Shown here: positions 33,078 through 42,131 of the stretch, one piece after another
Position numbering within the stretch: position 1 is the first letter of the stretch
Layout: each line of letters opens with the position of its first letter
Source: Limisphaerales bacterium
Lineage (GTDB): Bacteria; Verrucomicrobiota; Verrucomicrobiia; Limisphaerales; UBA11358
DNA length: 58,620 nt
Assembly (NCBI GenBank): GCA_003134375.1
Contig: PLAY01000182.1
Location: 1 to 58,620, forward strand
Reading direction: 5' to 3'
Notes under the pieces: generated by a model
Database searches by the model: none
What the model was told of the DNA's origin: nothing
What the model saw: only the letters and a program-made list of their open reading frames with translations
Translations under genes and position numbers: made by a program

Positions 33078-33107
33078 TGTCACAAAAACTAGGCAGTGTT
33101 TGTGACA
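33078..33107. promoter_or_regulatory. Inverted-repeat operator upstream of the AbiEi-like gene
   Basis: TGTCACAAA-12 nt-TTTGTGACA ending 8 nt before the ATG. AbiEi proteins are known to autorepress through promoter inverted repeats. Confidence 0.7.
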
Positions 33108-33114
33108 GTAATGA

Positions 33115-33726
33115 ATGAAAACACCAGCCCAACCCGTTGACGTTTCGATACTCCGGTTCATGCGGTCAAACCGGGGCGCTTCAGTATTCTCGCCCAGGAA
33201 CTTTGACGGATTGGGCAGCCCAGACGCCATCAGGCAGACGCTAAGCCGGCTGGTTAAAGCGGGCAAAATTCGCCGGATTCGCCGAGGACTCTATGATTTG
33301 CCGCGCCAGCATCCCATCATCGGCCAGACCGCGCCGGACATCATGGCAACCGTCCGCGCGTTGATGGAAGGCAGTCACGCGCAGTGGCAGTTCACCGGCG
33401 CTTACGCAGCAAACGCACTTGGCTTGTCGGACCAGGTGCCGGCCAAGATTGTCATCCTCACGGACGGCGCCCCGCGCCGGGTATCATTGGGGAAGTTGAC
33501 ACTCTTGTTCCACCGCGCCTCGCCGCGCAATCTGTTCGGAGCAGGCAAGCCAGCAGGCTTAGTCATTCAAGCGATTCGCCATCTACGAAATGACCCGGAC
33601 ATTTCCCGGCACATCGTGCGATTAAGAAAACGGTTGGACACAAAGACAAAATCAGATTTGAAATCGTTCGTGCCAAAAACGCCCGTGTGGATGCGGCCCA
33701 TCTTGCAGCAGATCATTCAGGACTAA
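33115..33726 (+). CDS. AbiEi/DUF6088-family wHTH transcriptional regulator (type IV TA antitoxin-like)
   Basis: AIRQTLSRLVKAGKIRRIRRGLY, GAYAANALGLSDQVP. Confidence 0.85.
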   Translation: MKTPAQPVDVSILRFMRSNRGASVFSPRNFDGLGSPDAIRQTLSRLVKAGKIRRIRRGLYDLPRQHPIIGQTAPDIMATVRALMEGSHAQWQFTGAYAANALGLSDQVPAKIVILTDGAPRRVSLGKLTLLFHRASPRNLFGAGKPAGLVIQAIRHLRNDPDISRHIVRLRKRLDTKTKSDLKSFVPKTPVWMRPILQQIIQD

Positions 33727-33729
33727 TAT

Positions 33730-40300: not shown

Positions 40301-40491
40301 GACTTCAGAGGCTGAACGAAGTTCTCCGGATGCACATGGATAAAGGCCGCTCCAGTCTTGCCGAGGCCACCCACGGGCAAATAACCAAGTTGAAAGAGCG
40401 CTGCGAAGTGCAGCGGCGAGCAATACGCGACCGTGCCAAAACCGAAGCTGCGTATCACCAGATATGCTGTGGCCTGATCAGAGCGACGTGA
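37372..40491 (+). CDS. SNF2-family helicase; likely start ATG 37372
   Basis: [43 protein letters not shown]; ATGA overlap. Confidence 0.9.
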   Translation: [1039 protein letters not shown]

Positions 40492-40514
40492 CCATGATTT
40501 TCAAGGACTAGCGA

Positions 40515-42131
40515 ATGGCAAATTGGTTTAAGAGCATACTTGGTTGGTTCAAGCAACCGATCGCTTCGGGCTCCACGCCGCAGACGGACGCTACCCAGCC
40601 ATCGCCCTCAGCATCCCCGGCTCAGGCCAATCTGTCCGACAAGAAAAGCAAAAGGCCATTAACATTTGAACCATCCACAACTCCAAAGCCCGAACCTGAA
40701 CGAGCCGAACCCTCCACGGTTACTCGCTACCAAGAATCTTCCGCGCTGACCTCTTTGCCTGCACCTCCGTTTTCTTCGCCTCAATCTGTTGCGGACCTGA
40801 CGATCGGCTTCGATTTGGGCACCAGTTGCAGCAAAGTGGCTGTTGGCGACAGCATACTTGGCAGTCAACACGGCGTGCCATTCAACACGCGTGCGCACGG
40901 AGTCGCGAAATACCTTTTCCCCACCCGATTCTATGAAGGTGCTGACGGGATTTCCTTGTCCTCTGGTCAACAGGCCAAGTTTGTATCGAATTTGAAACTC
41001 CGGCTGACCGAGGCTGTGGAAAACCACGGCGACACAAGCGGGTCGGAAACTGACTTGGCAATTTACGTGGCACTCGTGTTGAAACACACCCTTGCGTGGT
41101 ATGAGCAACATCGCGCTGGCGACCATCGCGCTAGGGCGCGTTGCTGGTGGCTAAGTTTCGGATTTCCGGCCAAGCGCGTGGATAACAATCCACGACTTCA
41201 TAAAACGTATCAGCGCTTTGCCGGGGCTGCCATCCAGGCCGTGAACTCAGGCGAGCACATAACTCGCGAATTGATCCAGCACTGTCTCGGCGGGACTCCG
41301 CTGGATGGAGATTCAAAACAGGTGCTTTCCTTGGATCGGGTGAGTTTCTATCCAGAGATTGCCGCCCAACTCGCGGGTTATGTCTATTCCCGCTACCGCA
41401 CCACCGGGCCGCTGATGCTTATCGATGTCGGCGCCGGCACGCTCGATATTTCCACCTTGATCCTCCACCAAAACGCGCATGAAGAAGTGTGTTCGTTCCA
41501 CTTCTGTGAAGTTGCACAGCTCGGAGCGTTCCGTTTGTATGAACAAATCCACCATGCCCTTGCCACCGTTTCGCCGGCTGCCGTGGACACTTTGGTCAGC
41601 ATCGGTTCCGACCAGGATTGGCATGTCCCCGAATCCGCTGGTGAATACTTGCGAGCCATCTCGGTCGTCACTAATCCCATGAAGGCTGCCTTCCATTCGA
41701 CGCGGGAGACATTCGCACTGAAATGTTTAGAGAAGGCATTATCGAACTTCTCCGCCTTTAAGCAATTTCTGGATCAACCATTTCGCGACGCGGACCAAAG
41801 ACCACAGGCATTTCGCCAAAACGTGAACATCATTCTGTCCGGCGGCGGAAGCCGTGCAATTTTTTACCGTAAACTCTTTCCTGAGCGATTGGAAGAAACT
41901 GTTGTAAACAGCGGTTTGACCACATGGAAGCTGGACCCCGGACGAAGGAAGATCGACGGACAGGGATTCCATCCTCGCCATTTGATGAAGCCCGATAAGT
42001 TCATCGTCAGTGGTGTCGAGTCCGACGACTTTGATCGCTTGAGTGTCGCACATGGTTTGTCACTCAGTTCTGAAACCCTTTTGCAGATTACCGCCAAAGA
42101 AATGTCTGACCGGCAGTGGAATGGCCGTTGA
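40515..42131 (+). CDS. Actin/Hsp70-like (ASKHA) ATPase with a disordered N-terminus
   Basis: GFDLGTSCSK, YPEIAAQ, IDVGAGTLD, LSGGGS, SVAHGL. Confidence 0.8.
   Translation: MANWFKSILGWFKQPIASGSTPQTDATQPSPSASPAQANLSDKKSKRPLTFEPSTTPKPEPERAEPSTVTRYQESSALTSLPAPPFSSPQSVADLTIGFDLGTSCSKVAVGDSILGSQHGVPFNTRAHGVAKYLFPTRFYEGADGISLSSGQQAKFVSNLKLRLTEAVENHGDTSGSETDLAIYVALVLKHTLAWYEQHRAGDHRARARCWWLSFGFPAKRVDNNPRLHKTYQRFAGAAIQAVNSGEHITRELIQHCLGGTPLDGDSKQVLSLDRVSFYPEIAAQLAGYVYSRYRTTGPLMLIDVGAGTLDISTLILHQNAHEEVCSFHFCEVAQLGAFRLYEQIHHALATVSPAAVDTLVSIGSDQDWHVPESAGEYLRAISVVTNPMKAAFHSTRETFALKCLEKALSNFSAFKQFLDQPFRDADQRPQAFRQNVNIILSGGGSRAIFYRKLFPERLEETVVNSGLTTWKLDPGRRKIDGQGFHPRHLMKPDKFIVSGVESDDFDRLSVAHGLSLSSETLLQITAKEMSDRQWNGR

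Follow-up and report, generated by a model that had tools for sequence, protein, structure and literature searches.

We found that a compact five-gene interval in the genome of a Limisphaerales bacterium probably represents one slot of a repeat-bounded defence island, in which an AbiEi-like regulator precedes two evolutionarily independent two-gene modules, each combining a nucleic-acid motor with an Hsp70-fold ATPase. The interval lies on contig PLAY01000182.1 (assembly GCA_003134375.1, 92.8% complete), of which a stretch of 58,620 nt, here called the window, was analysed; five intact plus-strand open reading frames (ORFs), g1 to g5, occupy positions 33115-42131 and are bounded by two plus-strand copies of a ~250-nt repeat (32790-33036 and 42312-42564). 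Both pairs, the Hsp70-TPR protein with a small helicase (g2-g3, module A) and the SNF2 ATPase with a second Hsp70-fold protein (g4-g5, module B), are credible defence candidates by their gene neighbourhood. What sets the window apart is their fusion into a single compact operon, preceded by an orphan regulator of the AbiEi type.

The regulator gene g1 (33115-33726, 203 aa) encodes an AbiEi-like/DUF6088 winged-helix protein by Pfam and PADLOC and is followed, after a gap of 3 nt, by the Hsp70-TPR gene g2 (33730-36108, 792 aa), which was assigned with Pfam, AlphaFold and Foldseek. The compact UvrD-like superfamily 1 (SF1) helicase gene g3 (36122-37375, 417 aa when counted from the ATG supported by its homologues) begins 13 nt further on and shares a 4-nt ATGA overlap with g4 (37372-40491, 1039 aa), a RapA/DrmD/BrxHII-type SNF2 ATPase according to PADLOC, Pfam and NCBIfam. 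A gap of 23 nt separates g4 from g5 (40515-42131, 538 aa), an Hsp70/actin-fold (ASKHA) ATPase without a family, recognised by its motifs and its AlphaFold model. A first-pass annotation of this DNA had described five tightly spaced genes between repeats, with much the same domains and without a recognisable nuclease or membrane effector. Coordinates, gaps and flanking repeat copies were all verified, and the domain calls agree with the Pfam, PADLOC and NCBIfam results; Pfam and PADLOC scans of the five proteins likewise recognised no nuclease or membrane domain, no transmembrane-helix predictor having been applied. The annotation also recognised no named system in this architecture, in line with our finding that PADLOC-DB 2.0.0 (2023), the defence-model library used throughout, gives no match for g2 and only a 25-residue motif match for g5. 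A promoter and terminator scan of 32400-42700 yielded counts no higher than those of shuffled controls and is uninformative on the limits of the operon.

The suggestion of the same annotation that the five genes form a single new defence system fared less well, as the arrangement was seen only in the close relatives L001 and L004 (the latter equivalent to L008). Its alternative, a merger of two two-gene modules (Hsp70 with SF1 helicase, SNF2 with actin-like ATPase), was borne out by comparative genomics: when neighbourhoods were checked gene by gene, g2-g3 and g4-g5 recurred as separate pairs in related loci. The g2 and g3 genes are missing in 23 of the 26 loci with at least 3.7 kb of sequence upstream of a full-length g4. 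The three g4-g5 loci that have them are L001, L004 and L008, the last two being 99.995% identical. The reverse case is provided by L171, where 11 kb of sequence 3' of g2-g3 contain neither g4 nor g5.

The SNF2/Hsp70-fold pair g4-g5

A metagenome scan with the g5 alignment returned 79 loci, in which synteny was counted for g5 matches spanning at least 300 residues. At all 46 loci with at least 1500 nt of upstream sequence, including all 37 with at least 3200 nt, g5 is immediately preceded by a g4 homologue in the same orientation, and this synteny extends down to ~25% identity in g5 and 37% in g4. Near-duplicates are present among the 46 loci, which correspond to 36, 26 and 12 clusters at 90, 70 and 50% g5 identity. 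Four loci with 300-1500 nt of upstream sequence (L047, L053, L067 and L074) give no g4 match, and only a divergent C-terminal end of g4 could fit there. When g4 was searched in 401 genomes of the phylum, four, this genome included, gave a match at E<=1e-80; the sole other near-full-length match (residues 69-1035, genome G348) is immediately followed by a divergent g5 (hmmsearch, 1.7e-21).

The motor protein g4 combines the Pfam domains SNF2-rel_dom (1.8e-22) and Helicase_C (9e-18), and its Walker A, DEAH and motif VI sequences are intact and invariant in 23 homologues. The PADLOC DrmD model PDLC02623 covers residues 7-1015 (6.3e-249), and the NCBIfam model DISARM_DrmD reaches 406.1 bits, short of its cut-off of 610. 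Further matches were obtained with the PADLOC models BrxHI/BrxHII (1e-61) and with the NCBIfam model RapA (2.2e-45, residues 510-984), and the closest solved relative of g4 is RapA (7.5e-28). RapA is the SNF2 ATPase that recycles RNA polymerase in Escherichia coli, BrxHII stems from BREX type 3 and ArmA from ARMADA II. It is this group that g4 resembles, with RapA as its nearest solved member by sequence. Proteins of the RapA/BrxHII/ArmA clade are described as comprising a Tudor domain, the SNF2 motor, an inactive restriction endonuclease (REase)-like domain and a C-terminal alpha/beta domain (PMC12839542), and by analogy g4 may also possess Tudor and inactive REase-like domains. In contrast to the situation of g4, the passages of that article consulted mention no Hsp70-fold partner for the clade. 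The locus also differs from BREX type 3 itself: among the 25 ORFs scanned in the window there is no PglZ or BrxC match, and the PglX/PglXI models give only a secondary match (2e-10) on an HmaB-like methylase.

The Zorya system, from which the SNF2/actin-like pair had initially been suspected to derive, offers no comparable likeness. ZorD models reach only residues 536-664 of g4, the generic helicase C lobe (7.6e-20), and ZorA and ZorB have no match in the scanned ORFs of the window. A Zorya origin of g4-g5 is hard to reconcile with this partial ZorD match as opposed to the full-length DrmD match, and with the presence of the pair inside DISARM- and ARMADA-like operons.

The partner protein g5 falls into no Pfam or NCBIfam family. 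An alignment of 42 homologues shows no variation in its phosphate-1, phosphate-2 and adenosine motifs, and its AlphaFold model (predicted local distance difference test score, pLDDT, of 82), which has an ATPase core at residues 87-538 behind a disordered stretch (residues 1-86), matches the nucleotide-binding domain (NBD) of DnaK, MreB and BeeR, in agreement with a protein atlas search. The disordered start (window 40515-40775) consists of a short amphipathic peptide and a low-complexity linker of ~75 residues, an arrangement found in about 30 of the 42 family members, and the peptide could serve in docking or membrane targeting. The family is large: a profile search yielded 2313, 1684 and 861 clusters (50% identity) at E<=1e-3, 1e-10 and 1e-30, and a word-indexed search retrieved 128 homologues without any name other than "hypothetical protein". 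Among the genomes of 61 relatives, g5 is present in one, which is this genome itself, and a scan of a genome collection returned one close relative. A complex prediction for g4 (residues 500-1039) with g5 (residues 87-538) gave a score of 0.00, which is no verdict and weighs neither for nor against binding.

The genomic company of the pair points to defence. At 16 of 20 distant g4-g5 loci that were scanned for neighbours, at least one PADLOC match at <=1e-8 was found. In L030 (148-17478), which carries a complete class 1 DISARM system, DrmMI comes first and is separated from g4 by two small genes of 151 aa and 477 aa (the larger with a weak AAA_16 match); g5, DrmA, DrmB and DrmC follow, with the g4 homologue in the position of DrmD. 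DrmA and DrmB adjoin the pair in L057 and L060, and a YprA/DruE-like helicase together with a large methyltransferase does so in L031, L039 and L076. L031 and L039 contain an additional DpdE/BrxH-like SNF2 protein, and by comparison with PMC12458937 their arrangement appears to be ARMADA-like. Other neighbours include Mza, Gabija with a phospholipase D (PLD)-helicase, type III restriction-modification, BrxL, PDC-S68, SoFic and NERD-UvrD helicases. No DrmA, DrmB or YprA partner was present among the scanned neighbours in 14 of the 20 distant loci.

The Limisphaerales locus belongs to this last kind. Between the two flanking repeats there is no methylase (DrmMI) or PLD (DrmC) gene; DrmB has no match in the 25 window ORFs, and the DrmA models give only secondary matches on an Hma SNF2 protein. 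As DUF1998/MZB (PF09369, DrmB-type) has no match in the whole genome, the pair stands here without DISARM core genes. DrmD is the SNF2 helicase in the composition of class 1 DISARM (bioRxiv 10.1101/2021.12.28.474362), and g4 shares with it the full-length match to the PADLOC model. It differs from DrmD in its score below the NCBIfam cut-off, in the lack of DrmA, DrmB, DrmC and DrmMI beside it, and in always preceding the gene of an Hsp70-fold ATPase; the passages of that preprint consulted on DISARM mention no such gene. We found no literature that joins DrmD and Hsp70 in a relevant sense.

We infer for module B that g5 would act as an ATP-driven switch or sensor subunit which gates the SNF2 motor. 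The motor would translocate on double-stranded DNA and strip or stall protein-DNA complexes of the invader, and might pass foreign DNA on to neighbouring restriction-type systems.

The Hsp70-TPR/helicase pair g2-g3

At all four distant g2 loci with downstream sequence (L085, L168, L171 and L178), the g2 homologue (37-44% identity) is directly followed by a g3 homologue (36-38%), usually with a 4-nt overlap at the junction. Further genes around the pair change from locus to locus. In L171, an NYN-domain protein is encoded just 3' of it, in L085 a DprA/SLOG-like protein just upstream, and in L087 a staphylococcal-nuclease (SNase) homologue lies just upstream of g2. In L004 (196-3219; identical in L008), four co-oriented genes replace g1 in the same operon as g2-g5 and encode an MIT_C PLD-like protein, a DprA/SLOG-like protein, which is 56% identical to that of L085, and two unknowns. 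The partners of module A are thus variable and include nucleases (PLD-like MIT_C, NYN and SNase). L004 and L008 represent an eight-gene version of the locus with a candidate nuclease, the MIT_C PLD-like protein.

The g2 protein contains a Pfam HSP70 domain (3.9e-29) and TPR repeats. Its AlphaFold model (pLDDT 88) comprises an NBD (residues 1-452), a beta-sandwich of the substrate-binding type (457-568) and TPR helices (579-773), and aligns to full-length DnaK (4b9q), the substrate-binding domain (SBD) included, with a Foldseek value of 2.7e-27. Since the model aligns to full-length DnaK yet ends in TPR helices, g2 is, according to this prediction, an Hsp70 paralogue in which TPR repeats replace the lid. 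It has the NBD and the beta-sandwich SBD in common with DnaK and differs from it in the TPR fusion at the lid position and in a score of 104 bits with DnaK equivalog models, whose cut-off is 648. By the same feature check, g5 has only the nucleotide-binding fold, and the idea that the g2 NBD and g5 are close paralogues was rejected, their likeness being at motif level only.

The Hsp70 nucleotide-binding motifs of g2 are fully conserved, at a mean column identity of 55% in an alignment of 33 sequences. The family, of ~800 aa, is conserved across phyla: the best 120 homologues are 40-99% identical and nearly all 785-830 residues long, and the few source names among them are metagenome-assembled genomes of several phyla. 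It is nevertheless rare, occurring in 3 of 401 genomes of the phylum and 4 of 401 of the class (this genome included in both), and in 2 of 104 genomes of the order of G722, including G722. A plasmid search retrieved no full-length relative, only the NBDs of ordinary Hsp70s, and scans of viral contigs found one true orthologue (L087), the remainder being phage DnaK-like genes.

The helicase g3 matches the Pfam families UvrD-helicase, AAA_19 and UvrD_C and displays the motifs GPPGSGKT (Walker A) and DEGQD. Its C-terminus comprises a flexible or disordered linker rich in P, S and T and an acidic-hydrophobic tail, which ends in D/S-F/L-L in six of six sequences. TPR co-chaperones bind the C-terminal EEVD tail of Hsp70. 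The conserved tail of g3 is reminiscent of this scheme and could represent a docking peptide for the TPR domain of g2. Gabija membership of g3 finds no backing, with weak and partial matches to GajB models (best 1.8e-14) and no adjoining GajA. A specific relationship of g3 to the NERD-UvrD helicases beside g4-g5 in L060 and L079 was rejected as well, because only SF1 motifs are shared.

Among described systems, module A resembles part of CoCoNuT type III, whose accessory proteins include CnuD, with an Hsp70-like NBD/SBD and HEAT-like repeats, and the helicase CnuH (PMC11090510). The combination of an Hsp70-like NBD/SBD and helical repeats beside a helicase is common to both. On the other hand, Pfam and PADLOC detected no McrB GTPase, McrC/DUF2357 or HEPN family in g1-g5, and the repeats of g2 are of the TPR and not the HEAT-like type, the comparison with CnuD and CnuH being one by description only.

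The first-pass annotation had suggested that the Hsp70-TPR protein may sense phage proteins. In module A, the SBD of g2 would bind a peptide that an invader protein exposes, and the TPR domain of g2 would hold g3 by the conserved C-terminal tail. ATP turnover could then release or activate the helicase and, where present, the nuclease.

One system or two modules

Several observations weigh against the reading of the interval as two independent defence modules. The genes g2 to g5 are packed like one operon, with the ATGA overlap joining g3 to g4, and their order recurs in L001 and L004, so that a joint function is possible. The evidence for each pair also has its gaps: outside the lineage of the window there are only six module A contexts, four of which stop at a contig edge after or inside the pair, and the 1-1.5 kb that follow two more distant SNF2 genes, whose match to g4 stops near residue 884, contain no g5. 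Since g5 served as the query that yielded the metagenome loci, these are silent on the frequency of g4-type SNF2 genes without g5, to which only the search of 401 genomes speaks. With respect to function, neighbourhood is the sole source from which a defence role would be read; 4 of the 20 distant g4-g5 loci have no neighbour with a defence-model match, housekeeping-type genes are among the neighbours in L070, L072 and L080, and g1-g5 contain no recognisable effector domain.

That all five genes, or at least g2-g5, constitute one integrated system, with the pairs as sub-modules able to work alone, is a rather unlikely alternative. It would explain the tight spacing and the gene overlap, the position of the whole block between two repeat copies in both the window and L001, and the retention of the g2-g5 order in L004 despite different upstream genes. 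It is weakened by the restriction of the joint arrangement to relatives with at least 87% g5 identity, by the many g4-g5 loci that have room for g2-g3 and lack them, by L171 with g2-g3 and without g4-g5, and by evidence that a slot between repeats may contain more than a single module. We consider it improbable, and more so than joint function, that g4-g5 are left over from an operon of the class 1 DISARM or ARMADA type and are inert here without DrmA, DrmB and a methylase. The full-length DrmD match, the pairs beside DISARM genes or beside a YprA-like helicase and a methyltransferase, and the lack of DUF1998 in this genome would fit such a remnant; on the other hand, neither gene is disrupted and no ATPase motif is missing, the g5 family is large, and the 14 distant loci without DrmA, DrmB or YprA among their scanned neighbours imply that the pair is kept without them. 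The least probable of these alternatives is a non-immune role, in which DNA or RNA housekeeping, stress functions or the mobility of the cassettes would depend on a polymerase-recycling factor of the RapA type and on a specialised chaperone whose client is a helicase. The kinship of g4 with RapA, the full Hsp70 nucleotide-binding and substrate-binding architecture of g2 and the housekeeping-type neighbours at some g4-g5 loci are compatible with this role. The patchy distribution of g2, g4 and g5, the occurrence of both pairs among Hma, Pycsar, Gabija, restriction-modification, DISARM and Mza genes, and the variable nuclease partners of module A argue against it.

Two independent modules within one defence slot therefore remain the interpretation that we favour. 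A cooperation of the pairs can be envisaged only tentatively, as a chaperone-based, nuclease-free immune machine in which the Hsp70 protein g2 would recognise phage proteins, and g5 would couple this signal to two DNA motors, which would remove the invading DNA or the complexes that replicate and transcribe it. Even as separate systems, the two pairs would each have an Hsp70-fold ATPase as a core immune component, which is not known from any named system.

Judged by its sequence, the interval does not qualify as DISARM, AbiE, Gabija, Zorya, CoCoNuT or BREX type 3. Neither pair is named in PADLOC-DB 2.0.0, Pfam, NCBIfam or the main text of the articles searched, and our search found no named anti-phage system with an Hsp70-fold ATPase as a core part. 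Here, two different ATPases of this fold are each tied to a motor of the helicase type. The pair of SNF2 and Hsp70-fold proteins is a common one, lacks a family model and is able to occupy the DrmD position of class 1 DISARM, a step that to our knowledge is mechanistically unexplained; because of this ability, an understanding of g4-g5 could clarify the RapA-like helicases of DISARM, ARMADA and BREX-type systems. The Hsp70-TPR/helicase pair represents a testable case of a chaperone as immune sensor, and the operon of the window, with both pairs, is a natural construct for testing their co-operation.

The regulator, the repeat and the surrounding island

The regulator g1 matches DUF6088 (3.5e-32), Pfam AbiEi_4 (29.2 bits, cut-off 25) and the PADLOC AbiEi model (1.2e-57), and scores 21.6 bits with NCBIfam TAA_AbiEi, whose cut-off is 150. 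Among the related loci, a g1 homologue is present only in L001, the nearest relative, and other genes stand in its place in L004, which puts g1 outside the conserved core. AbiEi antitoxins autoregulate, and a palindrome is expected just upstream of their genes. An inverted repeat with perfect 9-bp arms, TGTCACAAA-N12-TTTGTGACA, was read from the sequence at 33078-33107, with its end 8 nt ahead of the start codon of g1. It is a plausible candidate operator for g1, which would probably repress the operon through this palindrome. These AbiEi-type features are shared with AbiE, from which the locus differs in having no AbiEii nucleotidyltransferase toxin adjoining g1: an AbiEii (PF08843/DUF1814) partner was found nowhere on the contig of the window, and contigs C107, C76 and C150 account for the three matches in the genome.

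The ~250-nt direct repeat has a strongly conserved GC-rich core and occurs in 11 copies in the genome, in one orientation within each contig. Besides the two copies that flank g1-g5, the window contains three (26613-26781, 46952-47194 and 51987-52085), with distances of 4.6-9.5 kb between copies; the others are on contigs C70 (three), C54, C66 and C158. The repeat separates successive defence modules in the manner of cassette boundaries and also flanks related metagenome blocks and L001. In L001 a copy lies just 5' of g1, and the repeat is found 3' of g5 in L001, L003, L004, L005, L008 and L010. No recombinase is linked to the repeat here.

According to the PADLOC models, the window is a defence island with Hma, Pycsar, Gabija and further candidates. 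An Hma/DUF499-type set on the minus strand (7886-20027) comprises the HmaA SNF2 helicase, a 599-aa protein of no assigned function, the HmaB-like methylase (11244-14420), which is the sole methylase in the window, and a DUF499/HmaC ATPase. Pycsar (PycTIR and PycC, 20095-21738; PADLOC) comes next, on the opposite strand. A weak match to the DrmC model (5.2e-07) at 21772-24180 belongs to a slot other than that of g1-g5. Behind a PLD-like 802-aa gene and a 543-aa gene, a plus-strand gene (25844-26599) encodes a 251-aa protein without a family, which is 41% identical to the unknown gene directly 5' of the Hsp70-TPR gene in L004; in the window it occupies a different slot from g2. A UvrD-like helicase (28903-31227) was identified with PADLOC.

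The slot next to g5 holds a minus-strand E1/E2-like pair (42594-45256), in which a ThiF/E1-like protein of 507 aa adjoins a 378-aa protein with multiubiquitin and prokaryotic E2 domains, and looks like a candidate for ubiquitin-like conjugation defence. In another slot, a plus-strand gene with PD-(D/E)XK and RNase H-like domains (47250-48722, 490 aa) is found together with Gabija GajA and GajB (48848-51971; PADLOC). In L001 (12017-16719) it accompanies a 1076-aa nSTAND NTPase instead, and it seems to be a portable partner gene. Because this gene changes its slot partner between the window and L001, one inter-repeat slot need not equal one system. Near the start of the window (542-826), degenerate direct repeats with a 17-nt period form a run in which a 48-nt unit occurs 11 times, at 60-75% identity.

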